This document shows positions 12,091 through 38,658 of a stretch of DNA of 64,000 bases, in pieces (position 1 is the stretch's first letter; every line of letters begins with the position of its first letter). The position numbers were made by a program, and so were the translations under genes. The notes under the pieces were generated by a model. The model did not search any database. It saw only the letters and a list, made by a program, of their open reading frames with translations, and had not been told where the DNA came from. This stretch comes from Amoebophrya sp. A120 (taxonomy: Eukaryota; Protista; Dinoflagellata): assembly GCA_905178155.1 (NCBI GenBank), contig CAJINV010000004.1, positions 6,364,828-6,428,827 of the forward strand, read 5' to 3'.

Positions 12091-15000
12091 TCACGGCGAC
12101 TTCGGATTCGAGGCCCAGTCGAAGACCGCGAAGAAGAAGCTGACGCGGCCCTTCCGCAAAAACTCCTCCGTCTTCCAGGGTCCTTGGTGGATGGCCGCGC
12201 GGCACAGCGATCCCGGCCGCTCGTGTTTATGGAAGCGTCAGGATCGAAATTGACAAAATCGAAAAATTTGTGATGCATGAAATGAATGACGCGAAATACG
12301 TGTGTTGCAGAGCAGGCAAGTGAGGCCGATTGTGAGCCTGTTTGGGGTTCTAGCTAGAGCTGCTAAAGCAGCATGAGAGAATCAGTCCTCTTTGCCTAAA
12401 CAGCATTACAAACTGGATTTAGCAGGCACCACCAGAATTTGTGATGCGCCACTTAGAAACTGGGTTCGAACTGGAATCCATTTTATGCATGACAAATTAT
12501 TTCGATTTTGTCAATTTCGATTCTGACACTTCCATAGTGCTCCCCGCCAAAGTACATCGCGAAGTCGCGCCCCGTATCAAATGCAAAAATGTCTGGGTCT
12601 GGAAGATTGGAAGACTTGTCATGCACATTTTGCACGACCCATGACGCCTGTAATGCATGATCCAGCATCACAGATTTTGTGACGGCTTTTTGATGCCTAT
12701 ACCGCATGAGGAATACCCCCTCCGCGTAGCAGAAACTGGACTCCTCTCGCTGCTTACGCAGTACAGATTTTCTTCGAATCCAAAGACAGCATGACAAGTT
12801 GCATCCTTCCAGACCCAGACATTTTTGCATTTGATACCCCGGCCGCGGGGCGATCACGCGCTTCGCCTCGGTTTGCTGCAGTTTCGGGTACTTCGAAAAC
12901 CGTTTCTCCGTGAGTTCCCTCGGCCTGCCGATGGTGTGCTCCTTGACCGCGAACTTTCGAATCGGCGCCCACCGGTCGTATCGCGGGTCTAGCGTAGCGG
13001 GTTCTACTACTACGTCCTCGCGTGTCTCGTTTTTCATCGGCACAGTAGTGGAATCATTTGTTGCAGTTCCCTGAAGATGTTCCTCCTCGACAAAAGCAGC
13101 AGCGGCAGGAACAGCAGCTCCACCTGTAGTACCCGGAGCTGGGACGCCGCTGATGAACTCCATCCCCTCGAGCAGGCGGCCGTCTCCCGCAGATGGACGG
13201 GGGGAGGCGGAGGGCGGAAGGTTTATTTGCTCTTCTCCCTCCTTTTCCCCGTCCGCACAAACTTCATTGTCCGGGTGCTGGTGCTCGGGCGGCACGACGT
13301 GATCCGCGAACTTTTCTTCTGCGAGAACTGCTCCGCCCTGGCACTCCCGCACCTCGTCGCGGATGTCCACGAGTTCAGTCGTGCAGGAAAGAAAAGAGAT
13401 CACGCCGTGCAGGTAGTAGAAGTGCTCGTCGATGTGCCACGGCGGCCCGTCCGAGCACTTCTCGTCGTCCGGGGACCGGACGATGCACTGCGCCATCCAC
13501 ACCAGCCGGTTCTCGTCCCGTTCCGGGCGGAGCATCTCCTTCGCGCACTCCGGCACCAGCAGCCACTGCTCCGCCAGGTACTTCGCCAAGTCGCACAGCC
13601 CCTTCGACAGCGTTTGGGCGAGGTCCAGGGAGATGCTCGGCTCCTCCTCCTGCTCGGAGGTTTCTTCATCATCATGCATCTTCTCTGGAGCTGCTTCTTG
13701 TACAACTTTTGGTCCATCTTCTTGAAGAACCGTCGCTGTTGGCCTACTTGTACCAGAACCTCCTTCATCTTCATCAGCCTGAACAATTTCTTCCTGGCTC
13801 TGCTCCGCTTCCTCCACGACATCTAAAAGGCGACTTTTAGCAACAAGTCCTGCTGGAGTAGACGCGGGGGCTCCACCAGAACCATTCTTGCTGTCAGTGT
13901 CATCATGATCCTCCTTCTTCTCGTCGTCCTCCTCGCCCAGTGGTTCTTGTGTGAAGAACCCGTTACTATTTCCACCCGGTGCTGCGCTAAAGGAAAAGGT
14001 CTTCATCTTGCGCAGCTGCTTATCGGTGGAGAACTTCCGGGGTGGAGGTCGGGAAGAAGCTGAAGCTGGTGCTGGAAGTTGTACAACTTCTTCTACTCCT
14101 GGAGCTTCCTTTTTCTCGTCCGCCCATGTTGAACGTGCTTCTGCTCCTTCGTGCAAAGTCGTCGCAATTGCGGTACGCAGTGGAGGAACGACCTTCGTGC
14201 CTTCGCTGTTCTTCTGCGTTTCAACATAATTATTCCCTGCTCCTTGTTCCAAAGAGCCGCCAACTACGGCCGGTGATGTTGAGGAGGCGCTAGTACTACT
14301 ACAGGGGTTATTTCTACCGCCAGAAGCAGCGCTGCACGTCTTTTGTTGACAAGAACTACTGCCAACAAAAGCAGCCTCCTGCTTGTTCTTCACACCCCGC
14401 GTCAAACTGCAGCGCAGACTTTCCGCGATCTCCTTTTCCGCGTTCTCCCACTCCTTATCGCTTAATTTCTCGTGATATGGATTGCAAAAATGTCTGGGTC
14501 TGGAAGGAAGTAACTTGTGATGCTGCATTTGGATTCCAAAAAAATCTGTATTGCATGAGCAGCAAGAGAAGTCCAGTTTGGTTTACGCGGAGAGGGGATT
14601 TCTCATGCGGAATAGGCATCAGGAAGGCCTCTAAAAATATGTGATGCTAGATCATGCATTGCAGGCCTCATGGGTCATGGAAAACCTGCATGACAAATCT
14701 CGCAGTCTTCCAGACCCAGACATATTTGCAATTCATACGTGAAGCTTTCGGCAATCAAACACCGAGGACAGCGGGAAGCTGTCGCCCGTCTTCCCGCCGC
14801 TGGCCGCGATCCGGTTGGCGCGCTTTTTCACACGCAGTAAGTCGTCGTTGTTGAACGCGTCCAGCATTTTTCGCACCGTGTCCGGCAACTGCCATTTCCC
14901 CGTACTTTGCTCCAGCTCAAAAAAGTCCTGCGCCACAACGGTCGCCGGGTAGGAGTAAGGGGACAGCGGCTTCGAATTTGCGTTTGACTGTTGTTGTATC

Positions 15001-18000: not shown

Positions 18001-19040
18001 TCGGAGGGTAAAGGGTGCATCACCGGGGCCTCGTGTTCTTGAGGCTGTGATCTACTTGCGGGAGAAGAGGACGAGGACGAAGGAGGCTGGAGCAATTCGC
18101 CGCCGTGGTTCATCTGCTGTGGCGAAACAAAGTCGCTGTTACCCAACTCCAACTTTTCTTCGGCGGAGACCAAAAATTCCTTGCCGGTTTGTCGGTCTTG
18201 CACTTGCTTTTGCTCGTCCAGCGGATTAGGATTTTTGCCATTGTAGTTCTCTTCGGAATCGTTCAGCTGTGAATAATTCGGCTCGTCTCCATTTTGTTCC
18301 CCCTCGTCGAAAAAGCTGTTGCGAGGGCGGTCACGCCCAACATCCGCATGGTCGTCTTCACCAGCATTGTTATCGCTTTCTATTTTCTCTTCTGGCGACT
18401 TTCTTTCCGATAGTAGTAAAATTTGCTGAATATTATCCCCTTCCGGGTCGTTCGTGGCTGAGAGGTTCGGGCTGGTCGATTCTTGTATCAAATGTAAAAA
18501 TGTCTGGGTCTGGAAGAATGCGCGATTTGTCATGCAGCTTTTCCATGACCCATGAGGTCTGGAATGCAGGACCTAGCATGACAGATTCTGCGCGATCTCT
18601 CTCATGCCTATCCTGCATGAGAAACTCCCTCGCGACTTGGTCAAAACTGGACGACTTTTGGTAATCATGCAAAACAGATTTTTGCATGCTTCAGATTTAG
18701 CATGACAAGTTGCATTTTTCCAGACCCAGACATTTTTACATTTGATATCTTGGCTGGGTGTCGTGGGCAAAACGGTTTCTTGGTTATCGGAAATCGAGTT
18801 CTCGCTGCCTTTCCGCTGCGTTTTTGCATCTTCGGGAGTGCTTGTTGACGACGTCCTGGGTAGTAGTTCTTGTAGCTGGGCGGGACGAGTGTCTTGATTT
18901 TTGCAAAGAATAATGTTGTCATTCATTTTGCAGGACAGATTTTCACTGTGTTCTCCGCCGGTCTGTTCTTGGGGGTCCCCGCTATTTTTCCCCGGGTTTG
19001 GGATCGCGGCCGAGTTTGGAGACGCAGTAGACTTTGGCAT
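12091..19040 (-). CDS. ~1956-aa protein: long low-complexity region plus C-terminal putative 2OG-Fe(II) oxygenase/cupin-like domain
   Basis: Removing 4 introners joins exons 19040-18745, 18486-14735, 14476-12834, 12575-12534 and 12228-12091 (5871 nt) with no stop. The C-terminus has PWHIDE...AIHQGP...GRVSFFF (HxD...H...R pattern). Confidence 0.7.
12231..12533. mobile_element. Introner family B
   Basis: IR ggaagcgtcaggatcgaaattgacaaaatcgaaa / tttcgattttgtcaatttcgattctgacacttcc, flanked tAT...ATa. Excision gives GEHYKHERP. Confidence 0.9.
12578..12833. mobile_element. Introner family A (256 bp)
   Basis: Perfect IR caaatgcaaaaatgtctgggtctggaag / cttccagacccagacatttttgcatttg, flanked tAT...ATa. 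Excision gives RPGYTGRDF. Confidence 0.92.
14479..14734. mobile_element. Introner family A (256 bp), opposite orientation to 12578
   Basis: IR ggattgcaaaaatgtctgggtctggaag / cttccagacccagacatatttgcaattc. Excision gives KLHVYHEKL. Confidence 0.92.
18489..18744. mobile_element. Introner family A (256 bp)
   Basis: IR caaatgtaaaaatgtctgggtctggaa / ttccagacccagacatttttacatttg. Excision gives SQDIQEST. Confidence 0.92.
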
Positions 19041-19685
19041 TTTTTCGGTTTGGGGAATCTACTCGCAAGCGAGTAGTAATAGCTTTTCTGTTCCTTTTAC
19101 ACTACTTTATCATACTCTACGCTGCAATTTGGGAGTCAGTGGGTATCTCTTTTTAGAGTATGTTGGAAACATAGAGCAAGGTTATAGAGGTAATATTTGT
19201 GCTCTTGCTAACGCGAAAATGGTAAACATAAAACTTCAACAAAACAACCAGATTCACACTGTGATTTGAAAAAAAAAATGAACGTGCTCACAATTCGTCC
19301 TCGTATTGGAACTTCCACTAGATTTTGCGAAGATCTTCAAGAAACTCGAGACAGTTCGAGTACTTTTTTCTTTCAGACCGTCTCTCCTGTTGAGGACATT
19401 GCGATCGTATTTTCGTGCGGCTTCATTTAGTTTTTCAAACACGTATTTGGATTTGCTTGTGCGTTCAAACGCTGATCCATGATTCCAAATTGACGTTGAT
19501 CTCAGTCATTTTCACATCATACGGAGCGCGCTCGGTGCGGAACAAACCGGAGCTATGACTAACAAACTTGGTGTCCTCCAGCTCTCGTGAATTTGTGCTG
19601 CTATAATTTTTGTCACTATATCCTTATTTCCTTTGGCTTCGATTCGATTTGCTCAACTCATTTCGATTTCGTATCATCATACATT

Positions 19686-19835
19686 TGTATCGTTACGTCA
19701 GAAGTAGTATATTGCCTGGAGCCCGCACGTCAAACTAGCCCCCAACTACAGCCGATATGCTCGTGAAGGATCGCGGGCGAAAATGTTGATCTTTTGCCGG
19801 ATCTTACGAGAGTCGAGAGCGCAGAGCTTTGCCAT
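19686..19835 (-). repeat. Split direct repeat B2 (3' terminus of the element)
   Basis: 19686-19820 is identical to 20246-20380 (135 bp); homology extends to tttgccat after a 7-nt insertion. Confidence 0.95.
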
Positions 19836-20009
19836 AGAGAGAAGGGGGCTAGGTGACGCCTGGGAGTGTGAGTGAAGTTGGAGTGAACTCTAACAAATGA
19901 TCACGAAGTTGAAATGAACAGGGCAAACCACGCACTTGTATCCCGCCCGAGGAGGCGGCGGATGAGTACGTGGGCCTGTGGCCTGGAATGAGAAGGGTGA
20001 GGAGGGTGG

Positions 20010-20245
20010 GAAAGGAAAAACAGATCGTTCTCCGTCCGCTAGGTCTGAGAATGAGGTGAATGGAGTGAGAGTGAAGTGATGGAATGAAGCGGATCACGTT
20101 TCGTTTAGCGTGGATGCGTGTCCATACCCCACGGAATGCAAACGAGCTGCCACGAGCGGCTTTACAGCCAATAACCTACTTCCGACTTCGCTCACACAAA
20201 TTGGATTCCAGACGTACTACTTCGTACTACTAAGGATCCATAATC
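20010..20245 (-). repeat. Split direct repeat A2
   Basis: 236 bp matching 33113-33348 with one mismatch seen (gtttAgcg vs gtttCgcg). Confidence 0.95.
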
Positions 20246-20388
20246 TGTATCGTTACGTCAGAAGTAGTATATTGCCTGGAGCCCGCACGTCAAACTAGCC
20301 CCCAACTACAGCCGATATGCTCGTGAAGGATCGCGGGCGAAAATGTTGATCTTTTGCCGGATCTTACGAGAGTCGAGAGCTTTGCCAT
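20246..20388 (-). repeat. Split direct repeat B1, directly abutting A2
   Basis: Copy of 19686-19835. The junction ...cataatc|tgtatcg... equals the two element termini joined together. Confidence 0.95.
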
Positions 20389-20494
20389 TTTACCACAATA
20401 GAACAGGCGGGGCGAGACGCGAGCGAGGCCGGCTATGAGAGCGCGAGCGTCTCGCAACGGGAACCAGGAATTTGTATGAAGTGTAAACTCATGC

Positions 20495-23400
20495 TCATCG
20501 GGTGACAGGTGGAAGATACAGGCTTACTTTGACACTCATTTTTTTGCATTTCGTTTTGAAATCATACACAGCACGACCGTAATCGAACTTGCACCCGCCC
20601 GCGGAGCCAGTGCCGATGTTCATCGGTATGGCGATTGTGCGGCACTTTGGTGTGAGTGACTTTTTGTTCTCTTCCTTGATGTAATTGTAGATGTTGTTCA
20701 TGTTGTGACGAAACAGGGATAGACGCGCTTCTTTCCCATCATCGGTTGCGTGGCCGTCCCAAATTGTCTTGAACGAATTTGGTTCAGCAGCCGGTGGGTT
20801 TCCCTTGCGAAACATTGTGTAAATGTTGCAAACACGTCCTGAAATCTCAAATGAACCGCATGGCTTGTCTTTGGCTGGTAAATGATATTTCGAAGCGGAA
20901 GGGAAGATAGCATACAAATCCTTTGCGATGCCCTTTGCTTGGGTGATCGGGGATGTGCATGCAATGTGCAAAAACAAATCTTCGTTGCCATGACCAAACT
21001 GACCTCTTGTGGCGCCGTGTAGAAGGTCTAGCTGAAACTTGAACTTCGCGCCCTCTTTCAGCTTCGTCACCTGCGGGCGCAGGTCCAACTTCGGGAATCT
21101 TTCCTGGGACCACATGCTGATCGGGACGGAAGAGTAGATGATGTAATCGTCGTCGGCGGTCAAGTCTTGCCCGTTGGGGAGTGCGAAGCACTGCGACCCG
21201 AACTGAAACTTGGACACCTGGTGCAGGGGTTGCAACAACTGAGCGAATTTGCCGCCGAGGCTCTGTACCACTACCGCGATTCTTGGTCTCGCGGTTTCCG
21301 GCGTCCCTCGTAGCAGCTTGTGGAGGTACTTGAGCGCTGGGAACAGCACCGTGGTGGGCGGGAGCCACCAACTGCGCTTTTCCACGAACTCGTCGTAGTT
21401 GACGAAGATTTGATCCGAGTGGTGAAACTTCTTTCCCAGTCTGGCGAAGTTGTCGGAGCTACTACTACAGAAAGCCTCTACTGATAATCCGGGCAGCCTG
21501 TTGGAGATGATGCCCCATGATCTTTTGTTGAAACGCTTTTCGGGGTTGTTGTCGTACAGGCTGCAAAGCTTGTCACGAAACCCCTCCTTGAGATCGTTGA
21601 AGTTTACTGCTTTTTTCTTGCAGAACCGCTGATCGCGCTGCTTTTTTTCGTCGGAACGCACATCGGGGCTGTCGCGTGAGTGTACGTCAGCGACTGTGTT
21701 TTCATCACCGTAGCACTTTGCCGCCACGAGTTCTATGCGCAGTTTGTCGATCATGTCGGCAATGTTGAGTGACGCAGCATGTAAATCCGGTGAGGCGCAG
21801 CTGCCTTTGTTGCACAGCCGCTTCGCGCACGGGTTGTCGGTGTAGTACAACACGAGTTTATCAGTGAAGTCGACATCACCGCACCCGCTGGCTTCGTGGA
21901 TGATGAAGAACGGCGCCAGTGATTCCAGGCCGTTGATGTCGCAGTCGCGAAACTGCTCGGGCCACGTGCCCTTGTACGCGATGCCGTTGACCGTCCCGCC
22001 CCAGCCCGCCGTGGTGGCGGCATCACCGTAGACGACCACGAGGATGTCAGGGTCGATCGACCTGATGAATACATCCCCGAACTCGAGTACTTCGGCGCGC
22101 CAAAGAAACGAAGCGTGGCCATTGTAGTAAACTTTCGCGTACGGTTTTCGGGCGAGAACGTCGCGCCACCACCGCACTTCCTCGAATGAAGCCCAGCTGA
22201 CTTCGATCCAGGGGTTGTGCTTCGGGTTGTTCTGCCACACCTTGTACACCCCACTGCTGTTAAGGTCGTACTGAATGGCGTGCAGTGGGCCGCGATTCAC
22301 TACGAAAGTGATGCTCTGCAGCTTGCCAGCGCATTTTGCGAGGTCTTTTGCCTTGCAGCGGTAGTTGGATTCGGGGGACTTGAGGTAGTCCATGAATTCG
22401 CACAAGTAATCGTGGTACTTCACCCGTCGTTCCTCTTCGACGTACAGCCGCATGGTGTCGGTGTGGAGTTCGAACCCCAGCCACGGCATGTGTCGGGTTG
22501 GTTTGATGAGTTTCCCCGCGACGACATGTAGATCGAAGCCAAGATTAGACAGGAAGTAGAACTGCCGGCTCAAATCGTCCTCAGCGGCTTGGAAGGACAA
22601 CGGGTCGGATGTGACTATGTTTCTTATGTCATCGACATAATCGAAACGCTTCGCCAGAATTCCCGACTGTACTCCCAGTTCCAAGGCGTGTTTGACCATA
22701 CTGCGGGGTGGAGTTTGTGAGGTGATTACAAAGATGACTTGCATGAATTTTGAAAGATGATGCGAGGTATGAATCGAGTTTGTCATGCTAACGAAAATCA
22801 AAACTGTACCGATCATTGATGCCCGGGGCAGGGCCTACGCCAAACGGAACATATAAGTGTGTTCCGATTTCGCCCGTCGTGTCGTCGCCTGTGTAGCAGC
22901 CCAACAGTCGTCGGCACGATGCGGCAATCATGTAGTGGCTGAAACAATCTTTCAGGTCGATTCCCGTGAGGTAGCAGTTGGGAGTGACGTGCTCGAGCAG
23001 CTGCCACCAGCCGCTGTAGTCCACTGGCTCGCTGTAAATGGACTGACTCACGCGCGAGACTTTGTTCGACCAGTCGGTGACTAACCGTGCTTTCGTGCCG
23101 CCCTTCTGCATGAGTACGGTGGACGGTGCCCGCGTGAGATCCGCTGGGTAGATGACTTGTTGTTTTTTGAAGTCCCAGACTAGATTCTTCTGGTCCTGCC
23201 GTAGCTCGTTGTAGTCGTACAACACCAGCTTATTCGCAGTTTTGAACCGATAGATTTCGTTCAAAAACTGTTCGCGGTTATCTTCCGCACCGGAGTAATT
23301 GTTTTGCTGCGTCGGTTGAAATTCCGTGTCGGTGAAAGTGAAAGACACGCCCGAGAACCACTCCCGGACCACATCTGGGCTTACACCCCAGCGGATAGCG

Positions 23401-23642
23401 TTGTAGATGTTGAATGTTAAACCATCAAGCGCATGCTGGTCTTCTTGTTCGCGCCACGGGTCGGTTGGGCCGGGCTGGGACTTGAGGAACCCTGGGAGGT
23501 CCTCCGGACATGTCGGGAGGCCTGCTGCAAGGTAATCTTCAAAGGTGTACCTTGGTGCGGGTGTCAAGCCTAACCTCTTCTCATGCGCTGTGTGCTCGAG
23601 GTGCGCCGGAAGCGCCCGCGTCAGGCATGAGCGGAATGGCAT
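20495..23642 (-). CDS. Pol: reverse transcriptase, RNase H, degenerate adenine-methyltransferase-like domain and Macro domain; 2 exons
   Basis: RT: ARLVTDWS, IDLKDCFSH, VPFGVGPAP, YVDD, WLG. RNase H: YGDAA..GWG, INGLE, YTDN, NTVADVHSR. MT-like: VEAFCS..SWWLPP..IAVVV. Macro: AKGIAKDLYAIFP..IAIPMNIGTGSAGG. GT-AG intron 22701-22809 joins INDR|MVKH. Confidence 0.92.
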
Positions 23643-23938
23643 TCTGAGATCTTTTTGCTGTGAGTTTCACAAATGAAGATGAGGGATTGGCGCGGTGGGT
23701 TTTGATGGGAGTACTCGTTGTTTTTTCCCGACCTACACTCGAAACGCTCGCTGAATTGAGGTCGCTCAGATGCGGCTGTTGAAAAGACGTCACTCAGAGA
23801 AAGCGCTCGGCCGTTGACGTGGCAACAACAGAGAGAACAGGTTAAACGACGACGACGCCGGTAACTACTGTCCTCCGAGCAGTGGCATGACCACGGTGAA
23901 TCGTTTTCATTTGAAAAAAGGATACGAAGAAATAATGT

Positions 23939-26900
23939 TCACTTGCGCACCGCAGATGGATTCAGTCCGAGTTTCTTTGCAACGCGAGGAAATGCGAAGA
24001 AATTGACTTCGCCCGTGTTCAACTGGTTTGCGAGTTTCGGTGCGTACTTCAGAATGTCGTTGCTAGTGAAGTATTCTTCTTGCAGACTGTTATGTAGCTG
24101 AGTAGGCTGCTTAATTTTCTCGCGAGCATCGCGGGGTAGCGCCCACACCCGCTCAAGCTGTTGTAGCGTGGTGATTGCTCTGGCGTGTTGTACTTCTTTT
24201 TCGACGAAGCTGTCCACGATTTTGTGGAGCTGCAACGGTTCGATGGGAGCATATCTCTGATCGAGCATGTCCGCATTTCTCCAGCCACCCTGGAGATATG
24301 CTATTTTCCCGATAGCATCATGCTGTCGATAGAAAGTGGCGCCGCCGTGACGCAGCGACACTGAACCTTCGAAATTAGCTTTCCGGTGATTCACGAAGGC
24401 GCTTTTCGTGTCCAGTCGCACGCGGTCCTTCCCAAGCCTCTCGCCGCGGGTCGGGATTCTGTTCAAGCCGATGGTCACGAAGAACGGATGACTTTCGGCG
24501 TACGCGGTCGATTTGTGATGCAGAATGAGCGCCGTACTGAATTTCGTCCACTTCTGTATGAGCGACGCCATGCTCTTCGGCACGACGCAAAAACTACCCC
24601 GACCGTACTTGTCGTTTTTTGCGAACCTGAACAAAATGATAGTGGTATTGTGAATTTCAGTGCGCAGTACGATGAGGATGCGTTATGAATTTTTGCATGA
24701 TAAATGACAAAGTTGCACCTGATGTGGAAGGTTGGTATCCCGTCTTTCATAGAGAAGTCGTTCCGGTTGAACTGGCGGAGTTCGTCGTTTCTTCTCACGC
24801 CGAAATAACCGACGCAAATGATGACGGCTACTTGCAACTTGATCGCCGCTGCAAGAAAGTTGCGTTTGTCAAAATGCTGATGACAGATCCACTTGGGGTT
24901 GTCCCAATTGTCGACTTCCCCCGCGAATGCAGCGTCGAACTCCTTCTGCAGGTTTCTGATGATTACTGAAATCTCGAAGAAATCCGGGATCACCTTCTTT
25001 GCTGCGACAGCGTGATAAGCGTTCAGCTTCAATCCCCGCCATGCGCGATAGAAAAATTTTGATTTGTCAGAACAACTGTACGACGACAAGTGCGGGCGGC
25101 TACTGTTGAAAATGTTTATCGCTGCGGATAACGTGAGGCACGCGCCCCATCGCACTTTGCCGTCCGTTTCTTTGATGGCCGGGCTGTTTTCTTCTTTCTT
25201 CATGATTTTGGTGAAAGCGCAGAAGAAGGTGATGCACTCCATCTCGTTCTGCACCGGCCACAACACGCGACCAACGAAGTCGCAAATTAGTGGTACGTAG
25301 CGGCTCAGCGCCTGCTGATATGATTTCGCGGTTGACGCTGCGATTGACGAGTTGTTCACCATGACCAACTCTTCTGCTAGCTCATCGCGCACCTTGTTGT
25401 CCACTGGTAGCGAGTCGAAGAAGTCGGAGGCAGCGGGAAATAGTACCAAATCTAGGGATGATGAATCACCTGAGTATTTGTCCCATTTGTCTGCCTTTCG
25501 GTGAAGTTTAATTTGGTTGGCGGTCGACAGGGATGAATTCCCGAGAATTTCCTGCACCGTTTTTTGAATGTCGTCTGTGTCGGAGTTCTCCGCGGACGAA
25601 TGAAATTCCGATCCGACGGCACTGTCAGAAGTGAAGCCGTCGTCGCTTCCATCGCTGTGGTCGCTGAGAGCGATGACACCACGACTGACGTACTCGTCCA
25701 CGTCGACGAGATCGTCGCCATCATCGTGAGCCTCCTCGTCATGCGCTGCGTCGCGGCGGTAGTGCATGATTTCAATTTGCGAGCGGACCGCTTGCCTTTC
25801 TTCGAGTTGCTTCTTGTTCAGCTCGACGAGAGCGGAGTCAAGAGCGGCCTCCAGAATCTCGTCGTCGGACGTTCGTGCAAACGAAGATGAAGAGGACTGC
25901 GCGCCTGCTTCGCGCTTGGACTTCTTTGCGGCTGGTGAGGCAGCAGCGGCTTTCTTCCTAGCATCTGCTTTGCCCTTCAGGTAGGCTTCCCTCGCGACCG
26001 CCTCGACGTCTACGAACGGTTGTTGTTGCTTTGGCTCCTCTGCCGCACTGCTTTGGTTCAAGAAATCGAACATGTCACTCTGAACCGGCTGCTTCGCGGT
26101 TTGTGAAGCGACAGCAGCGGCCAGCTTTGCGTCTGAGCGCTGCGCCGCTGGTAGATCCTGACGGAGTCGATCCTTCAACTCCGGCCTGCGGAAGAACATG
26201 CTAGGATCGAACATCTCTCTTCGATCGTTTTGATGATGGTTCGGACTGCTCGCTGTTAGTTTCGCGAATTCGTCGCTGTTCAGCCAGGTTGCATACAGCC
26301 CGGTGGACCACTTGTAGCTGATCGGCCTGAGAGAGGGTGGGGAGTCCGTTGCACTGGTTGTTTCCCCCGGTGGTGCCCAGTACGATGGTGGCGGGATTGC
26401 CGAGGACGGGGTCTCTTGGTCCCAGCAGCTGTGGCGCAGCACCAGCAGTGCTGCTGCTAGCTGAGCTTGACGAAGCACCCGCACTTTGTCTTGCGCTGCG
26501 TGAAGATGATGAAGCAGCTGACGATGACGCAGAATTTAATGATGATGAGTTTGTGATTATGAGGTCGTGTGTGAAGTGTAGTTGATTCACTTCCTGCAAC
26601 GAATTCGCAGTCGATTCCACGAGTGCGATGTTGGCGGCCTGTCGCAGCGGGGCTGCAGCTTCCGCTGCCGCGTGCGCACGCCGCTGCTCTTCTTCCGCCC
26701 GCTGTAACACGCGAGCTTCGAAGGCCTCTGCGTCGCGGCGAATCCGATCGAGATCTGGCCCTACAACGACACTGGGCGAAAAGCTGGAAGTTGTTTTTGC
26801 GAGCTGGATACTTTCTGCTCGCGCTCGGTGTTGTAGTCGCGATTATTCCTGACGAGGTACTCGCGATAAACACCGTTGCGGAGATACCACCTCTCGACTC

Positions 26901-27248
26901 TGAGTGTGCCCCGGAGTGCGTTGAGCTTGGCGATGCTCCGCACTTCGTATCGCGATGTCGAAGGAGTTTCACCCGTGCCGCCGCTGGCGTCGTACGTGCC
27001 GGCTACCAAGGATTTGGCTACTTGGAAGCTGCCGCAGCTGACTAATTTTTGTTGTCCGGGCAGCACTCTGTCCACACTGTGACGCCGCGCTCAGCGGCAG
27101 ACGAGCCGGTGTCTGGCTGTATTGTGACACTAGCAACGGTGGCTTCTCTGCATGGGGTATAATTGAAAACAGCCTTCACGAAATCGTAAGTTTTGCTTGA
27201 TAGCTTATGCTTTCTTTCGCTCAAGAATTGCTCCACATTCTCGCTCAT
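23939..27248 (-). CDS. Tyrosine recombinase with a long N-terminal extension, multi-exon
   Basis: Motifs STAKSYQ, GYFGVRRNDEL (R), HIR|FAKND (K), VSLRHGGAT (R) and GGWRNADMLDQRY (W, Y). GT-AG intron 24627-24718. Exons upstream of 26484 (ORFs 26201, 26761, 27042) are unresolved, so the start is tentative. Confidence 0.85.
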
Positions 27249-27796
27249 TTTGCATTTTGCTATGGCAAGAATAGGAGCGGAAACACGACGACCAGTGCGT
27301 ACGAGACACGTTTGTACGAATGAAAAAGAAACATGACAACGAATGAAAATGAAAACATGAAGACGGCAGAACATCCGGATGAAATGACGGCACGACGCGT
27401 TCAAGAAACTGACAAAAGTTTCAAGGCGCGAAGGTACTAAAGTGATGCTTTCCGAGGCGTTTTAAAATGGGACGCACTGTGCATTTCTTTCTTCAAAGAC
27501 AGTGTTAAAGTAAATTGCTATTTTTGTCGACTAAGAAACTGCTCATGCATTTCATCGTCGACCGTGCGACGTGAAATCGAGACGCAGCTTGCAGCTGCGA
27601 AACACGTGTTCACTCAAATCTGTGATGCTGTACAGCTGGGTAAAATGAAGGCGAGGCTTGTTATTGAGCTGTTGTAAATTTTTTCTGTAATCTCTGATAA
27701 TAATCCCTTGACTTTAGTGCAAGTTTTTTGATTCAGATGATGAAGCCAAATGAAGCTTATTGTCTGAAAATGTCATAAGATTTCGTGTAAATTTGT

Positions 27797-30284
27797 TTAC
27801 GTGCGGGGCCGCTTGTTGGTGCGGTAGTTTGAGTCTTTGAACTCACACTGCTCGCGCCAGTGGTATTGTCCTGAACGACCACGCTCCTTACAAATTTCAC
27901 ACTCCACAACACGTTCATTCTTCGCGGCGATACAGTGACTGTAACCACTTTGATGCGTAGCGTATCCTCTGCCAGCTAAAAAACAGCTCTTACACTTGTT
28001 CGCTCCCCCCGCAAGCCATTTGCTGGTCGCTTTTTCGTCTTTGTTGTAGCACTGCTGCAGCGCTGCTTGCGCAGCCTGGGCATCTTGTTTTAAGATTGCC
28101 GTGGTGAGGATCGAATCGATTTCCTTGTTCGTGTGGCGGTCCACACCGACGTACGACGGAGCCTGTGCGGCGCCACCTTGGTGGCCACCCTTTCCGCCCT
28201 GGTGCGTGTTCGCGATGCCGCCACCGCCGCCTCCACCCTTGTTCTTGCTACCTGAGGGCGGTTGCAATGACAAGACTTTGCGGCGCAAGGCGAGATGTAT
28301 CAGAATGAAGAGCGTGTTTTGCATGACAAACATGACGGCGCGTTTCGCCTGAAAATATGAATTTGTGACGCAAGCAAGAATGAAAGTGATTCGAAGGTGG
28401 TTGATAGTGATACCCTTGTTGGTCTTTTCGCCATGCGAAGACGCGCCGCCGCTGCCGGAATTGGCGGTCTTGTTGGGTTTGTCGTTCTTGTTTTCGTGGA
28501 ACACCATGGATTTTAACTGCCTGGCTGTGGCGATATTGCTCGCCGCGCACATGAGATAGCGCGGGGCAAACTCTAAATTCCAGAGCGCACGCTTGGCCGG
28601 AGTTATGGTGCCCCTGAATTTCACCTCCTTACAAAAACTCCTGTATTGTGAGGCGAAATGAATTTGAGTGAAGAACTTTTATGCGAAATGAAATGAAATG
28701 AGAATCATGAGTACGCATTACAAATTGCATAACTTATCAACCAGAAAACTACCTGATTGTCGAGTAGCAGGCGAAGCTGATGTTTGCCGGTAAGGTGATC
28801 ATGGTGGTCTTCCCGTGGAGTTTTTCGGATTTGGGTGCAGCCATATTATGGCACTCTAATAAGTACTCAATGGCAAATTTAAATTTTGCCGCGAGCAAAC
28901 TGCACGCTTCGTCCTCCCCGTAGCACAAAATGACTTTGTCCAGGTAGTCCTTGCAGGTCTGCAGCGAGCCACCGTTGGTCGGCAAAATCAGACTCTACAA
29001 CAATTTTTGCATGAAGATTTTCATGTTGAATTCCCGATGAAATTTGACATGCACCTCGAAAAAATTGATAGCAGACATCCTGACGATTACCGAAATGGAG
29101 GTAAGCAAATGCTGTACCTTCCATTTGTAATGGGTATTCGCTTTCCGTTGCAAGTCCGAGATCGCGATGCGGGTCGACGCGGACACCGTACCCGACGCTT
29201 CGACCTGCGCCGCCGCGAGCACCGTCTGTGGGTCCATCCGGGTGGTGTGATCGGTGTTTTCAAAATTCGGCCGCTTCAAAACCTGAAACAAGGGTTGAAA
29301 ACGACGAATGGATAAATGAGGTGAGTTTGTGATGTGTGTGAACATGCATCAGTGATGAAAGTGAAAATGAAGGGCACAGCTTTACCTTCAATCCCGCCAC
29401 TAGTTCTTTGGGGTCGAGCGCGGACAGTTTGGCGCACCACTTCACTTCGGACACGATCAACGGGATCACGCTTGCATCACCGCTGCTTTCCGCCAAATTC
29501 TTTTTGACTACCCCCGCGAGGTCCTGGGCGTCCTGAACGTTACACACCGCGCAAATGTTCTGGGTCTCGTCGAGGCTGTGGTGAAGTTTTACACGTGTTT
29601 GAAACTTGTGATGCGTATTTCCGTGGTGCAAAAATGAAAAGCACTGTCATGGTGTGGGGTGAAAATGACATGATTTTAATCGGAGTACATGTTGAATTTT
29701 GACATCCAGGACGAAAAGGCTCCCACTCCGCTTTTCTTCACGCAGTCGTAGCAGGCCGCCGCGGTGCACCCTTGGCGCCGCAGGCAGCAGAACTGAATGC
29801 CCTTCTCCGGTTTTTCGGTCCGGCAAAAAGCGCATGGGTAGTCGGCCAACCGCGTGTTGGCTGCGGCGGGACCCCCTACTGCGGCTGCCATCTTGTCTAC
29901 TTCCGGGTAATCGATACCAAGCAGATCGAAGAACTCTTTACAAATGCGTTGGTGATTGTGCAGCTCTAAAACGAAATGGATGTGGTGTAAGATGATTTCG
30001 AGTTTGTCTTCCAGATAGTGCAACAACCAAATACTGATGTGGTCACGCGAGAACTGGCCGATCGGATTGATCAGCAGGTCGATGAATGGATTGCGGTCCG
30101 AGTGCTGGTGGAAGAAAGCAAGCGACTCAGGCGTGATATAGCGACTGTGGTACGGATTATTGGTTTCTTGAACATCAGTGCTCACCCACACAATTTCTTC
30201 TACTTCTTCTTCTCCAATGCTGTTTATTGTAGAATCCGTATCGCTAACCACAGTGACATCAAAGTTTTTCTTAACCCAAGACAT
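27797..30284 (-). CDS. Gag-like protein, ~624 aa: N-terminal RING/PHD-like Cys cluster and two C-terminal CxxC..H..C fingers; 6 exons
   Basis: GT-AG introns 29576-29688, 29283-29385, 28995-29117, 28641-28752 and 28252-28413 give one 1875-nt ORF. Cys motifs CAFC..CC..C..CYDC..CAVC, CKSC-x8-H-x6-C and CEIC-x9-H-x4-C. Confidence 0.75.
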
Positions 30285-30444
30285 GTTGAAGCACAACTTC
30301 AGATAATTGGTCGCTGTTAGAATCGAATTTTTTTCGTACTGAAATGATTGCTTTTTCCTTTTCAAAACTGCTCCTTCGAATTGAAATGAGTACGGAGCTG
30401 AAGTGTTCTAATGGTGAATGGAGAGTGACAACCGTCTAGCAGTT

Positions 30445-31136
30445 TCAGTTCAACGCCACGCGTGGCGCAGTCGCGATCACTGCTTGCGTCTGCGGCATTC
30501 CGTCGATTGTGTGGCCGATCAAGGTGGTCCACCCTGTCGGCAGTCCCAGACCGATGGCCGTGACATCGGTCATGCTCCGCACGAAGAACTTGAAACTCGC
30601 GCACGGGGGCATGAGGATCACGTTGAACTCCATCAACATGTGCCGCATCCGCAAATTCGCCGGGGCTCCTTGCAGCGTGTGTTGGATGAACCCATCCAAC
30701 TGCTCGCTCATGAGATTGAACGCTTCGATGCGGATGTGCGGCTCCACGCGGGAGCGCACGAACTGCTCGCAGACGTCCCCGATATTCACCAACGTGGCCG
30801 CTCCGAACACTAAAGCGCTGCACACCTGGCGTGAGTTGGTGTTTGGTACATGCTTGAAGTGTTGAGCTGTGTGAATATTTGACCATGCATGAATCTTTTT
30901 TGAAAATGATAAGAAAACGAGACCTTGAAATCCATCTGATTGGTAATTCCCGACAAAGTTTTGATTTTTTGCAGCAGCAGCAACTCGCTCGAAGTGCACT
31001 TCGTATCATACTCCAAAACTGCATAGCGCAAACCCGCGGGTAACTCGGGCATGATGACCTCGTTTTCCTTCGGGCAGCGCGGGCAGCGTGCGGGGGCCGT
31101 TGTAACGCCACGCACAGCCACCGAGTTTTCAGTCAT
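30445..31136 (-). CDS. Retroelement accessory gene (hypothetical, N-terminal CxxC), probably 2 exons
   Basis: Exon MTENSV..CPRC plus exon VCSALVFG..RVALN after a cag acceptor; donor site unresolved. Confidence 0.45.
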
Positions 31137-31138
31137 TT

Positions 31139-31513
31139 TTACTTGTGTTCGCCTTCGAAAATTTTCTTGTGATCTTTGCACGAAGACGCGGAAGCTGAGC
31201 TAGAAGAAGAAGAGGGTGCCTGCTTGTCGCGCAATTTTTTGATCTTGTTCAACTCTTTGACATGATTCAACCAGCAGGGCAGTGTGCTCACACACTCCTT
31301 CCTCGGGTACGCGGACAAAAAGCAGTTCTTGCACGGAGTCTCGTGCTTTTTGAAGAACTCTTCGCGCGCTTTTTTCTTCTCCAGCGTGTCTTTGTCGGAC
31401 GCATTGATAGCATTAAGAAGGAGAGAAGCTCTGTTGTCGACATCGGAAATGTGACACAGGCGGCCCAGCATGTTGGCCATTTCTTTATCAACTTTCTCGC
31501 TTTGTTGTGACAT
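31139..31513 (-). CDS. Retroelement accessory gene, 124 aa, putative Zn-binding (CKNC..C..C..H)
   Basis: ATG-initiated ORF with PCKNCFLSAYPRKECVSTLPCWLNH, which resembles the Gag-like CKSCFLAG finger. Confidence 0.55.
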   Translation of the reverse strand: MSQQSEKVDKEMANMLGRLCHISDVDNRASLLLNAINASDKDTLEKKKAREEFFKKHETPCKNCFLSAYPRKECVSTLPCWLNHVKELNKIKKLRDKQAPSSSSSSASASSCKDHKKIFEGEHK

Positions 31514-31690
31514 TTTGATCTGAAACTGCAGGTGAAAGTGAGTAGGTAGTCTAAAGAATTGCTAAGCTGATAGGCGAGCAATAAATTTAGAACGCATAAT
31601 GATAGTGAAGTGAAAACCATGAAAGAAATGATAATTGTAGATTGAAGATCATGAGCACTTTGGCGCTAGCGAATGAAAGCACCCGACGCC

Positions 31691-32519
31691 TTAGTAGAAC
31701 AATTTTTCTTGTTCGGTGGTGTTCCGCGTGGTGACAGCTGTCACACCATCTTCGGTGATTTCTTCCGTCACGGTGTTGCGGTCACGCGAGAAAATTTTCT
31801 TCATGGTACGCGTGCGACCATCCGCCGACTTTTCGCCCGAGCACCTCACCAAGGACTGCTGGACCTTTTGAAGTGAATGTTTTTTAATCGCATGAAAATT
31901 CTTCTAGCGCAGTGGTGTCATGTTCGATCCACGGGTTCGTGTGCAACACAATTCCCAACAGACGACACTGATTATACACCTTGCGTTCGTACACTTCTCC
32001 GATGACTTTCGCCGTGTCTGCGATGACCTTCGCCGGCTGTAACAGCTTCGTGAACAGCTCGACGATCGAGCGCAGCTGCACGAAAATCTTTTTTGTGTTG
32101 CTCATTCCCCCTTGGGCGCGCCTGTTGCTCTCCGCTCCCTGCATGAGCGCGTAAAAAGCGAACCCGGTGAGCAGGGCCTCGCACCAGGTCAACTGGAACG
32201 TGAAGCGAAAGATGCAGGGGAAGGTGAAGATCCTGCGATTAATTTTTGAGATGAATCTGTGTGAAGTGACAATGAATGAAAACATGATCACTGTGAATGA
32301 CATGAAGTGAAGTCTGAAAGTATGATACCGATACGCCGAGGACGCGTAGAAAACGCAGATTCCCACATAGTGTTCGCGTTCCACGAAAACGCGCTTCACC
32401 CATCCAGAGAGCACCAGAATGGTGGCTAGCCCCACGAGAAATGGGGTGAGGATTTCGTCCTGCAGCATGAACAAGATCAACTTGTCCGCTGGGGCAAGGT
32501 CCGGCGTCGGTGGTGACAT
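31691..32519 (-). CDS. Retroelement accessory gene: small multi-pass membrane protein, 3 exons
   Basis: GT-AG introns 32233-32334 and 31865-31979 give a clean ORF. Hydrophobic segments ILTPFLVGLATILVLSGWV, YVGICVFYASSAIFTFPCIF and WCEALLTGFAFYALM. Confidence 0.6.
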
Positions 32520-32558
32520 TTTGATGTGAGACAATGAAATGAGAACAGGAAGTCGAAG

Positions 32559-32861
32559 CTAATTTTTCTTTTGCTTCTTCGGCGCGGGCTCGGTCTCCAC
32601 CTCGTCTTTTGGAATAGCCAGCTGTTGATGTTCGTCGCTGAAAATCAGAAAGCCGCTCGGCATGGGTCTAACTTTCTTTCCCAGAACTGTTATGTCATTG
32701 CTGTGCGTTCCAAAATACAAAGGATAAGCGGAGACAAACGGCTCAGTGGTGCCGTCCCATTTCGTTAGAGTGAAATGCGTTTGGCCCGGGCCAAATTGAA
32801 AATATACCGCCCGCAAGTCAGCAGGCATTTTGTTAGTTGACGAAGCTACAGGTGAATTCAT
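32559..32861 (-). CDS. Retroelement accessory gene, 100 aa, with C-terminal NLS-like PAPKKQKK
   Basis: ATG-initiated ORF of normal complexity; first gene after repeat A1. Confidence 0.55.
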   Translation of the reverse strand: MNSPVASSTNKMPADLRAVYFQFGPGQTHFTLTKWDGTTEPFVSAYPLYFGTHSNDITVLGKKVRPMPSGFLIFSDEHQQLAIPKDEVETEPAPKKQKKN

Positions 32862-33112
32862 TGAGGTTGAATTCGTAAGCTTGATCGCAGCATGTAACCG
32901 TACTCAAAGATCAGATTCCAGGTTCTTGAGTGCTCCTGATTGACGCTGCTCCCACTCTCTGTCTCAGTACTCCAGAACAACAACGAAAAACTGTTTCTAT
33001 CCATCCTGATCAGCGGTCAGCGTTCTAAACAGCATCTTTTTATCTGTGTTCAAGTTCAAGCGTTCACGATTACGAAAATGAGATGTTGAGTGACATCGGT
33101 ACAGACGAGCAA

Positions 33113-33348
33113 GAAAGGAAAAACAGATCGTTCTCCGTCCGCTAGGTCTGAGAATGAGGTGAATGGAGTGAGAGTGAAGTGATGGAATGAAGCGGATCAC
33201 GTTTCGTTTCGCGTGGATGCGTGTCCATACCCCACGGAATGCAAACGAGCTGCCACGAGCGGCTTTACAGCCAATAACCTACTTCCGACTTCGCTCACAC
33301 AAATTGGATTCCAGACGTACTACTTCGTACTACTAAGGATCCATAATC
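33113..33348 (-). repeat. Split direct repeat A1 (5' terminus of the element)
   Basis: Near-identical to 20010-20245. Confidence 0.95.
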
Positions 33349-33478
33349 GCATCGGGCCGAAATCGAGCCAACTGCGAAGAAAATAAACATCATCAGGTCG
33401 ACATCACAGCGACACAAAGTAGAAGCAATCCATTTTTCTACCTTCAGAACGCAACATGGCAACGAAGGTACATCCCCT

Positions 33479-34885
33479 TTAAGGCATCGCCAACGCTGAG
33501 CTAGTGCGGAATGTTACTAGGCACTGATACGTGTTCCAAAACAGCCCGACTCCGGCGTCCCAAGTGGCGCGAAAATGCGGGGAAAACAGACGCTGAATGA
33601 GCGTGAAGTTTAAAAAATCCGAGATCGGCCAGACCCACCAGCTGGTAAGGTAGATCTCCCAAAAATTCTCCCGAAAACGGAACTGGGACAGCCAAAAAAC
33701 TGTGCGAACCGCCTCTGCGAAAGAAATCTGGTGTCCTTGTGCTGCAAGGTGTGAATCAACAGAAGCATCGACTGCGGTCTTGTGAATTGTACTCCGACTG
33801 CTCTTACCGCCTTCGAGGTTCTGCGCTGCGGCAAGCGCTGCACAAACAGAAACAGTGACTACAACCTCCTCTCCGGCTGAGGCCCTCGAGCGTACTAGCG
33901 CAGCCTCGTCGTCGTCACCTTCTGCTAAAGATCTGGACGTCGTTTCGCCCGACATCGATGGCCTTGCGCGACAGACTGGGGTCGCGGCACCAAACAGTTT
34001 CGCCAAGTCAGCCTCTAGCCGTGAAAGCTCGCGGGCGTTCATGAAGGTGGCTACTTGCGGTTGCAGTTGCAGACCCACATGATCGTACGGGTCGTCGTCC
34101 ACTGGGGCGCCGCGCGGAATGTGGCCACTGGTTCTCTTGCCATCAACATCCTCCTCGCCGTCCTCTTGGTCCACACCTCGTTCTTCAACCCCAAAGCCAG
34201 AAGTTGCATGAACTTTCTGTAAACACGCCGGCGTTCTTGCCGCGGGCGTGACAGCGTTTCGCAGTGCCGCGCGTCCAGCCGAGCTTGTGGGAAAAAGCGC
34301 GAGGTATTTGGGCCACAAAAACCTCTCCCAGATCACCTCCCAGGTGAGGTGCGCGGTCGTGCTACAGGTCACGAACAGCCAAATGCTCAAAGGAGTCCAC
34401 GCGAGCTGCATAAACAAAACCTTCTTTCCCAGAACACGAAAGTCCACGGATTTTGCACTTGATCTTACACGACGGCTGCTGGTGCTGCTCCCGGCCGCCG
34501 CGTCCGTCGCTGAAGTAGATGCCGCAGGCGGTGCCGTGACGTGTTTATTTGTGTTCATCCCATGTAGAAGTTGTTCTTGAGGCGTATTGCGTGCAACAGC
34601 CGTCGCGCCCATCGTGCGACGGTCTTGCAGGCCACTTGTGACGTCGAATAGGCGATCGGCTAGTCGGTAGGCCTGCACGAGACATCCCGTGCAAACAGGC
34701 GCGGCGCTCATCACGCCAAGGGTGCGGCACGGGTTCCAAGGCTTGTCGTGCATGAACAGGTGCTCGAGACGGTTGGCCGCGACGTCCGTAACACCGTATA
34801 ACCCCACACCCAAGAGCAGCGGCGCACCATTTGGGTGGTTCTCGTAGAAAGACGCGACGCGCGCACGAAAAGCAGACAGCCGCAT
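33479..34885 (-). CDS. Mpv17/PMP22 family membrane protein
   Basis: Motifs GLYGVTDVAAN, WNPCRT, KKVLFMQLAWTP, FWEIYLTSWWVWPISDFLNF and VGLFWNTY. Confidence 0.85.
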   Translation of the reverse strand: MRLSAFRARVASFYENHPNGAPLLLGVGLYGVTDVAANRLEHLFMHDKPWNPCRTLGVMSAAPVCTGCLVQAYRLADRLFDVTSGLQDRRTMGATAVARNTPQEQLLHGMNTNKHVTAPPAASTSATDAAAGSSTSSRRVRSSAKSVDFRVLGKKVLFMQLAWTPLSIWLFVTCSTTAHLTWEVIWERFLWPKYLALFPTSSAGRAALRNAVTPAARTPACLQKVHATSGFGVEERGVDQEDGEEDVDGKRTSGHIPRGAPVDDDPYDHVGLQLQPQVATFMNARELSRLEADLAKLFGAATPVCRARPSMSGETTSRSLAEGDDDEAALVRSRASAGEEVVVTVSVCAALAAAQNLEGGKSSRSTIHKTAVDASVDSHLAAQGHQISFAEAVRTVFWLSQFRFRENFWEIYLTSWWVWPISDFLNFTLIQRLFSPHFRATWDAGVGLFWNTYQCLVTFRTSSALAMP

Positions 34886-37487: not shown

Positions 37488-38658
37488 CTACGCACTGCCC
37501 TCCGGCCTCACACGCCCGTTCCTCTCCTCGCCCGTCTTCTCCTCCGCCTTCGTCTCGGTCTCCCCGTCCGTCTTCACCTCGGTAGAAGCGGGTGTCGTGG
37601 TGGTCGTGATTGTCGCGTCTTCATCCGCAACCGTATGCATTCCAAATATGTCTGGGTCTGGAAAGATGCAAGGTTTGTCATGTTTGGCTAACACGACTCT
37701 TTAGTCTGTTATGCGCGTGACCCAAGCCCCCTCACTTTTCTCTCATGCGGAAGCTCACTTTATCATGCATAATAGACAAGACTGTAGCAACCCCAAAGCT
37801 TGTCATGCTTGGCAGTAAAGTGAGGTTTTCTCGTCTTTCTCAACCAGCATCACAAGTTTCCAGACCCAGACATTTTTGCATTTGATAATCCGCCGTGGTC
37901 GTGGTTGTCGTGACAGTGGAGTTTGTCGTTTCCTCCGGGACCTCAAAGCTGTGCGGGTCGCAAGCGCCGCAAGAAATTCCGGCCGAGTATGAAGGGAAAA
38001 AAACAATAAACGCACCAGCAGCTTTGTCGTGGTGCTTGTTCATCGTCGTTTTGGTTTTCATCGTTTATGATTCTGGTGTAATTACAAGCTGTGGAATTCA
38101 TGCAGATAAGTCCCGGAAGCTGTTGCTGTATGAGCTGCCTACACATGTCACTTGAATGCATGGTGAAAAAATGCATTGCCCATGCTTGTGAAACCGCGAA
38201 CGACCACGGACTAGGCGCTATGCCGAAGTGGAAAGTATGTATCTCATACACCGAACTGGTTGGCCATCGCTTTTTGGAACCCGTTGCGCGAGTCTGTGTG
38301 CTCCGGGGCAGCTGAAGAGGATGGTGGGCAATAAGTAGAACATGGTTAGAGGAGATTCAGATTATAGAGGTGTTTTCTATGAATAAAGCATCAAGGTTGT
38401 TAACTTCATTATTTTTCATGTGTGAAGATTCCAAAAAAAAACTTCTATACCGTCGTAGCTGAACCACTTGTTGTCTTCAGAGCTTTTCAAGTTTTCGCCG
38501 GATGCCTTTGCCATGTCTTCCTCAAACGCCGCCTTCTCCGAGCGCCAGTCGTCGTCGTCCTTCACCTTCTTGCTGTTACGCAGGTGCTTCGCCTCGTCAA
38601 TCACGACCTGCGTGACAAAGACAGCCAAGCACAAGGATCTACTCGAGCAGGAACGCAT
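37488..38658 (-). CDS. Hypothetical, probably secreted protein with a Thr-rich C-terminus; internal exons unresolved
   Basis: First exon has a hydrophobic N-terminus. The last two exons join across an introner (TTTADY|TVADEDAT). Confidence 0.45.
37637..37884. mobile_element. Introner family A (248 bp)
   Basis: IR caaatatgtctgggtctggaaa / tttccagacccagacatttttg, flanked tAT...ATa. Excision restores the frame. Confidence 0.88.

Follow-up and report, generated by a model that had tools for sequence, protein, structure and literature searches.

In this study, we analysed a 64,000-nucleotide (nt) stretch of the genome of the dinoflagellate Amoebophrya sp. A120 (assembly GCA_905178155.1, contig CAJINV010000004.1, positions 6,364,828 to 6,428,827), hereafter called the window, which carries on its minus strand a 13,663-base-pair (bp) mobile element encoding a reverse transcriptase (RT) and a tyrosine recombinase. 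This is a real and complete split-repeat element. We consider it likely that it is a single-copy retrotransposon of the DIRS order, which was copied from unspliced, full-length RNA, thereby keeping its predicted introns, and was inserted by its recombinase. A preliminary description of the same DNA had proposed a young, intact element of a distinct lineage, and this proposal is supported by short-read contigs, by the open frames and by the RT tree. The layout is as follows, with all coordinates given as window positions.

19686-33348, minus strand: whole element, 13,663 bp, with the layout A1-genes-B1A2-spacer-B2
33113-33348, minus strand: repeat A1, 236 bp, the 5' end of the element, starting with GAT; position 33188 is the counterpart of the start site in A2
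20246-20380, minus strand: repeat B1, 135 bp; upstream, past a 7-nt insertion in B2, 13 further bases match B2
20010-20245, minus strand: repeat A2, 236 bp; position 20084, in a TCATT motif, is the start of an RNA-like contig
19821-20009, minus strand: unique spacer between A2 and B2
19686-19820, minus strand: repeat B2, 135 bp, the 3' end of the element, followed by AAT

The A and B pairs are the two longest near-identical direct repeats in the window, and the near-identity first reported for them was confirmed, with one mismatch in 236 bp between A1 and A2 (20107/33210) and none in 135 bp between B1 and B2. GAT is present both at the 5' end of the element and at the B1|A2 joint, AAT opens the 3' flank, and comparison of the two ends revealed no target duplication longer than these terminal trinucleotides. 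Split direct repeats without a target duplication are the ends expected of the DIRS order. A trinucleotide at both ends is a known signature of recombinase insertion (PMC3266345, PMC7192593; here and below, what is taken from a cited paper refers to the part of its text that was available to us), and the sequence of the B1|A2 joint is that expected at the junction of a circle. Of the 48 inverted repeat pairs listed, the 25 longest included none inside the element, and the element is therefore not of the DIRS1-like type with inverted terminal repeats and an internal complementary region.

The assembly was compared with short-read contigs. In a DNA run, X1, the contig spanning 20342-33142 had zero differences from the window and a depth of 40.3, while the depths were 40.5-46.8 for the flanking contigs, 47.7 for the spacer, 77.2 for A and 83.5 for B. 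These identities and depths indicate that: the assembly is sound; the genome holds one copy of the element at 90% likeness or more; and there are no solo A-B units. Copy number was read here from contig depth, which covers copies of 90% likeness or more, and X1 is possibly the run behind the assembly, so that it serves as a check of the sequence and not as independent support. Repeat A appeared as a single 236-nt contig of double depth with no difference, meaning that A1 and A2 are identical in the reads, and repeat B is broken at 19812, a B2 position with A in place of G both in X1 and in X3, a run that we took by guess to be RNA. As B1 and B2 thus differ by one base in the reads, the reverse of the picture in the window, positions 20107 and 19812 are probably two consensus errors inside the repeats.

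The 13.7 kb probably hold about eight genes. Their long frames are interrupted by G-poor, TCA-rich segments of 92-162 nt with GT...AG ends, and when these are removed as introns (about 11 in all, with five in g5 and one each in the recombinase gene and pol, making seven in the core, two in g2 and one in g4), the models of g1 to g5, the recombinase and Pol are free of stops at the lengths given here in amino acids (aa).

32559-32861, minus strand: g1, 100 aa, one exon, with a basic C-terminus resembling a nuclear signal
31691-32519, minus strand: g2, about 180 aa, a predicted membrane protein with a hydrophobic N-terminal helix; predicted introns 32354-32193 (uncertain) and 31979-31856
31139-31513, minus strand: g3, 124 aa, Cys-rich, one exon
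30445-31136, minus strand: g4, 197 aa, beginning 2 nt past the g3 stop; predicted intron 30923-30826
27797-30284, minus strand: g5, gag-like, 624 aa, six exons
29688-29576, 29385-29283, 29117-28995, 28752-28641 and 28413-28252, minus strand: predicted introns of g5
26201-27248, minus strand: g6, about 270-290 aa, between gag and the recombinase gene; its stop overlaps the recombinase ATG by 14 nt
23939-26214, minus strand: tyrosine recombinase, 727 aa; predicted intron 24718-24627
20495-23642, minus strand: pol, 1012 aa, with RT, RNase H, an N6-adenine methyltransferase-like domain and a macrodomain; predicted intron 22809-22701
21120-21570 (approximate), minus strand: methyltransferase-like (Dam-type) domain of Pol, after RNase H
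20520-21030 (approximate), minus strand: Poa1p/TARG1-type macrodomain, the last 170 residues of Pol

The predicted splice in pol restores a spacing of 21 residues from motif B to YVDD, which is the same in 13 of 16 relatives (20 or 22 in the others, one being mis-parsed), and the splice in the recombinase gene separates the Lys from the first Arg motif by 28 residues, compared with 29 in 4/4 relatives. The RT of one relative, P0002, contains an in-frame insert of 34 residues that resembles a read-through intron, at a site different from that in the window. A frameshifted dead copy was ruled out because the frame changes coincide with GT-AG introns and the reads agree with the window. An origin of the introns as introners was also rejected: mutual likeness among the 11 introns was no better than among shuffles (best score 28 vs 28) and none matched the window's introner, so that they did not arise in a burst after insertion.

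The preliminary description gave the minus-strand order as four accessory genes, gag-like gene, recombinase and pol. That order holds, but g6, the introns in most genes and the macrodomain of Pol had been missed. In the block 27248-26201, a codon model trained on g5, the recombinase gene and pol was positive in three successive frames, and 0 of 504 canonical splice models linked the block to the recombinase gene, so that g6 is probably an eighth gene. The product of g5 has a RING-like Cys cluster, a Gly-rich stretch and two C-terminal Cys/His knuckles, the knuckles being recognised by reading the sequence. The RING is a lead only (score 0.80-0.82 in the ESM atlas, where neither g5 exon 1 nor g4 exon 2 had a match at 0.9). 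A likeness of g5 to the tail of a Prorocentrum protein, P0050, was not significant (expect value, E, 0.41) and was dropped.

Pol carries the RT motifs IDLKDCF and YVDD and the D, E, D, D residues of RNase H, as expected of the DIRS order, so that both enzymes are intact, as had been stated earlier. The domain after RNase H scored 77.9 bits against a methyltransferase profile built from the tails of 14 relatives, compared with at most 5.7 bits for 300 shuffles, and the same profile also matched 4/4 tails that are positive for Pfam Dam; a first profile, made from distant Dam-positive tails, had been marginal (8.0 bits vs 7.3 for shuffles). A fold model of this region matches phage adenine methyltransferases, and Pol has no match to the Pfam family DNA_methylase (Dnmt3-type cytosine). 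For the macrodomain, a profile of three free-standing relatives gave 61.1 bits and, among the other proteins compared, matched only the window and P0019, a further Amoebophrya protein. An alignment profile of this domain matches Poa1p and BT1257, its fold model matches TARG1, Poa1p and alphavirus macrodomains, and its nearest sequences are free-standing Poa1p-type proteins. Macrodomains are known from some long interspersed nuclear elements. ADP-ribose-related NADAR domains are known in Gypsy and Tx1 elements (PMC12477816).

In the recombinase, R, K, x-x-x-R, W and Y are kept and the His position is occupied by Val, confirming the earlier statement that its motifs are intact except for one His. 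This position is Val, Ile or Leu in 6/6 related recombinases, one of them from a transcriptome; the loss thus belongs to the clade, and decay of this copy was ruled out as its cause. Against a profile of relatives, the recombinase scored 11.3 bits, with shuffles reaching no more than 2.1. A word-index protein search with recombinase exon 1 and pol exon 2 found no match, a tool evidently too blunt for this purpose since phmmer does find relatives.

Among 1.84 billion proteins, phmmer returned 139 matches, mostly to RT/RNase H and with 34% identity at best. Thirty pol matches were looked up, eight of which bear names (four Amoebophrya, one Prorocentrum, one Pseudoscourfieldia and two "hypothetical"); no VIPER or TATE name occurs among these 30, 22 of which are without a name, and none of our searches brought up a VIPER or TATE sequence. 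RT-RNase H was covered sufficiently in 68 of 143 proteins, and after 25 redundant or short rows were dropped, a midpoint-rooted tree of 44 rows was obtained; the closest match, P0001, lacks half of the RT and was left out. The tree places the window Pol, together with Amoebophrya and unnamed marine sequences, in a 12-row clade (98/97) within a 21-row clade (100/99), next to a group containing Amoebophrya P0008 (92/88). It is separate from the DIRS1-like clade, which has a protein of the order RT, RNase H, methyltransferase, recombinase, and prasinophyte rows bearing a methyltransferase lie outside its clade in this tree, which holds no named PAT reference.

Four Amoebophrya proteins, P0008 and P0033 (both AT5.2), P0019 (A120) and P0006 (A25), resemble the window element in RT clade or architecture, in a recombinase before RT (P0008 and P0033), a recombinase without the His, and a macrodomain in P0019, which has the order RNase H, methyltransferase, macro. 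However, they are only 23-30% identical to it and are annotated as unnamed proteins. With a macrodomain in P0019 and the window and a cupin/JmjC domain in P0008, the C-terminus of Pol seems to be a modular slot. The cupin/JmjC domain at the end of P0008 Pol is possibly a gene-model fusion, and P0043 combines cytosine and adenine methyltransferase domains with RT. A metagenome scan of 162 candidate stretches yielded two loci, both too short to show 5' genes. In one (L002), two 154-nt direct repeats (2728-2881, 4232-4385) come after pol, with no open reading frame (ORF) above 106 aa, an arrangement that fits pol as the last gene and is probably the 3' end of another split-repeat element; short tandem repeats lie between the two 154-nt copies. 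In the other (L001), an unbroken pol frame of 695 aa indicates that introns are not present in all relatives. A scan of IMG/VR with the RT, which can detect close relatives only, gave no match.

Transcription was assessed from X3. Its contig 19606-20084 has a depth of 29.4 (host-gene contigs, 15.6 and 4.4) and carries nine untemplated T before 19606, where the genome continues without an A run. The contig starts one base after the TCA of a TCATT inside A2, leaving the first 160 nt of A uncovered; this TCATT resembles an initiator motif. The RNA start is thereby placed inside A, as the split-repeat replication model, reportedly put forward by Goodwin and Poulter in 2004, requires. The A2-spacer-B2 unit is seen as a polyadenylated contig at about twice host-gene depth, like the SIRE unit of VIPER, and 19606-20084 folds better than shuffles (z -2.7). 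One X3 piece from the body of the element starts exactly at an AG 31 nt before the g5 ATG, and the Amoebophrya spliced leader is described as ending in TCAAG; this post-hoc observation on one contig hints at a possible leader joint. The raw RNA runs X5 and X6 covered the introner only and not host genes, which makes them uninformative on expression.

Under the retrotransposon reading, whole-element transcription would start in A1 at 33188. Part of this RNA would be spliced, and probably also divided into messages for single genes through trans-splicing of a spliced leader to AG sites in front of the genes, to yield about eight proteins, and the Gag knuckles would retain unspliced RNA. RT and RNase H would copy the unspliced RNA, with the missing 5' part of A1 rebuilt from A2 and the B2 end from B1. 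The ends would then join to form a B|A junction with GAT, and the recombinase would cross this junction with a target AAT without duplication, a scheme for which a DIRS-1 version has been published (PMC3266345). The macrodomain would bind ADP-ribose or take it off, either where the element inserts or on the element's own proteins, and g1 to g4 would be standing element genes and not viral cargo. Alternatively, the element might move mainly as DNA, with the recombinase excising a circle and reinserting it, introns and copy number being kept and RT acting rarely. The single copy and the many introns are consistent with such movement, and recombination between the flanking GAT and AAT could restore the junction. 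However, A1 and A2 are 13 kb apart and yet identical in the reads, as expected of recent RT copying, all catalytic residues of RT and RNase H are retained, and an RNA start inside A suits the split-repeat RNA route. We therefore regard movement mainly as DNA as unlikely.

The 5' genes were searched with several tools, although not every gene went to every tool. For g1 to g4 there was no above-threshold match in Pfam or NCBIfam, no match in IMG/VR (where, again, only close relatives are seen) and none elsewhere in the window. The sole PHROG match, of g3 to a family of unknown function, was weak (E 2.4e-4), a phage search found no relative of g3, and Rfam gave no match. A single-sequence fold model of g1 (predicted local distance difference test score, pLDDT, 48) was too poor for use. 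Synonymous codon use was core-like for g2 (z 3.7), host-like for g1 (z -2.9) and undecided for g4 (z 1.0) and g3 (z -0.7); the test is a weak one, as g5 itself is undecided (z -0.3). Nothing found supports a viral origin of g1 to g4, so that the virus-like accessory cargo of the preliminary description is not borne out, and nothing makes these genes a family trait.

They might instead be host sequence captured once by this copy or a recent ancestor, which is compatible with the core acting as proposed above. The element is a single copy, no relative carries g1 to g4, and the codon use of g1 is that of the host; moreover, no function has been assigned to about 60% of the proteins of Amoebophrya (PMC7789003), so that missing matches tell us little. 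However, g1 to g4 lie inside the near-identical repeats at spacings of only 39, 177 and 2 nt, their intron and spacer style is G-poor, like that of gag and pol, the codon use of g2 resembles that of the element, and none of the four is matched elsewhere in the window. A single capture thus seems possible but rather doubtful.

A far less probable explanation is that the element is an integrated, infectious, retrovirus-like agent, in which g2 would be a membrane protein for exit or entry, while host defence would be countered by the remaining 5' genes together with the RING-like Gag and the macrodomain. Eight genes in 13.7 kb, a hydrophobic g2, a macrodomain fold that matches RNA-virus as well as cellular macrodomains, and a lone young copy without older genome relatives at 90% identity or more would all be in keeping with such an agent. 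However, the IMG/VR scans, which see close relatives only, found no viral relative of g1 to g4 or RT, the phage search found none, and PHROGs offered the one weak match only; g2 is small, with no sign of a large ectodomain; and the macrodomain is nearest to free-standing Poa1p-type proteins. Slightly less remote, though still improbable, is a broader proposal of a syndinian lineage of giant, eight-gene, virus-like DIRS elements, whose polycistronic RNA would be either packaged unspliced or cis-/trans-spliced and which would possess a membrane protein for cell-to-cell spread together with a counter-defence kit (macrodomain, RING-like Gag and adenine methyltransferase). If true, this would give the DIRS order its first complex and possibly infectious member.

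Several points weigh against the view of an intron-keeping retrotransposon that we prefer. As there is one copy only, retrotransposition with introns is deduced from repeat identity, and all introns are predictions with no spliced read behind them, those of g2 being the least sure. The recombinase, a hallmark of the DIRS order, is called with moderate confidence from its motifs and the profile of relatives, and that profile matched no solved structure in the PDB. No exon of the element was above the cut-off in Pfam, PHROGs or NCBIfam, apart from the weak PHROG match of g3; in agreement with this, Symbiodinium DIRS RTs fit Pfam poorly (PMC5890265). The branch of the window Pol is long (1.23), in a tree that holds no named VIPER, Ngaro, PAT or SymbioDIRS rows. 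The macrodomain has HIACT where its free-standing relatives have the motif HQCNC and may therefore not be catalytic. The body of the element is nearly silent in X3, where it is represented by at least four pieces at depths of 2-4, and Farhat et al., in the part of their text at hand, saw no evidence of polycistronic co-regulation in Amoebophrya. Finally, codon use places g1 with the host genes and does not decide on g3 and g4.

The surroundings of the element are those of a eukaryotic chromosome, with two host features adjoining it.

33479-34885, minus strand: host Mpv17/PMP22 gene, outside the element (Pfam PF04117, E 4e-10), covered by X3 contigs
19606-19685, minus strand: host flank ending at the poly(A) site 19606; together with 33349-33478 it would form the split 3' untranslated region (UTR) of the Mpv17 gene

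As the Mpv17 stop lies 130 bp from A1 and the poly(A) site 80 bp beyond the other end of the element, we infer that the insertion took place in the 3' UTR of this gene. The X3 contig of Mpv17 (33346-34379) stops 3 nt inside A1, so that the insertion may have severed the gene from its former poly(A) site. The flanking genes (Mpv17/PMP22, ATG5, 6PF2K and PNPase-like) are eukaryotic and nearly all on the same strand; Amoebophrya genomes are known for one-way gene blocks and inverted-repeat introners (PMC7789003). A 265-bp inverted-repeat element at 18485-18749 took most of the 9,453 X1 records, with a summed depth of 376,000 in that bin. Its family of about 265 bp (18485-18749, 12573-12841, 14471-14739, 37631-37892, about 40040-40303, 47177-47446 and 56624-56928) has inverted ends of 36-50 nt, and several copies split host reading frames, like Amoebophrya introners. 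Further short inverted-repeat families (2940-3240 and 12225-12536; 57104-57419 and 59918-60237; 43822-43933 and 45959-46061) probably represent other introners; an exon of the PNPase-like gene (RNase PH and KH domains) lies between the two members of the pair near 43.8 and 46.0 kb. An exact 50-nt direct repeat (53737-53786 and 54982-55031) is also present, its copies 1,245 bp apart.

A copy that is intact and holds about eight genes, with introns throughout the core and a macrodomain, would demonstrate that the DIRS order can carry cargo and can regulate the splicing of its genome RNA in much the same way as complex retroviruses. Priming, end rebuilding and insertion of split-repeat elements have been little tested, and an intact element that occurs once in the genome of a protist amenable to culture, whose start in A is mapped and whose recombinase lacks the His as throughout its clade, would allow these steps to be traced easily and without confusion by paralogues. 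The data also suggest that Amoebophrya strains and marine samples contain a family that has escaped annotation. In the literature searched, with subscription papers and Repbase outside its scope, we found no description of a Syndiniales tyrosine-recombinase retrotransposon, no macrodomain in any tyrosine-recombinase retrotransposon, and neither introns in core genes nor such a number of genes in the DIRS order. The word "intron" is absent from the available text of the surveys of tyrosine-recombinase elements searched, and the accessible part of bioRxiv 10.64898/2026.05.21.726589 makes no mention of Amoebophrya, introns or macro.

Elements of the DIRS order described so far contain about three ORFs and measure 5-7 kb (PMC6681497, PMC3266345, PMC8547959), and the window element is more than twice this usual size. 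SymbioDIRS-Dnmt3 of Symbiodiniaceae (de Mendoza et al. 2018, PMC5890265) shares with it dinoflagellate hosts, repeats of the form A-coding-B-A-B and a separate recombinase ORF, and likewise has two layouts with shuffled order of recombinase and Pol, an extra enzyme domain on Pol and an RT that diverges from Pfam. However, that element carries a cytosine methyltransferase and is intronless, whereas ours combines a Dam-type domain with a macrodomain and has about eight genes with some 11 predicted introns; the likeness is judged from the published description. The preliminary description had seen a novel hybrid of the VIPER gene order with a DIRS1/PAT methyltransferase. Both traits are present, but the novelty does not stand, since split repeats with a shuffled order have been published for SymbioDIRS-Dnmt3 (PMC5890265) and the order is shared by P0008 and P0033.

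Penelope-like elements also keep introns through retrotransposition, but they have another class of RT, a GIY-YIG nuclease instead of a recombinase, few introns and different ends (PMC8557442). Ngaro-like elements, as described, have no methyltransferase and carry the recombinase as their last ORF, and the window element differs from them in both respects. The PAT-like elements (Pat1, Toc3 and Kangaroo; PMC4157794) have split direct repeats, a methyltransferase after RNase H and a Gag zinc-finger motif in common with it. However, their recombinase lies downstream of pol, whereas that of the window (26214-23939) precedes pol (23642-20495), and the 13.7-kb size, the extra genes, the predicted introns, the macrodomain and the clade-wide loss of the His in H-x-x-R are further differences. 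VIPER and TATE of kinetoplastids (Ribeiro et al. 2019, PMC6681497) share the order gag, recombinase, RT/RNase H, the A1...B1 A2 B2 repeats and a trans-splicing host, and the A2-B2 transcript in the window recalls the VIPER-derived SIRE unit (PMC6681497). However, VIPER has three ORFs and, according to the available text of PMC4157794, no methyltransferase, whereas the window element has a methyltransferase-like domain. The element thus works like PAT-like and VIPER-like elements, but departs from each in one defining feature, from the former in the position of its recombinase and from the latter in the presence of a methyltransferase.

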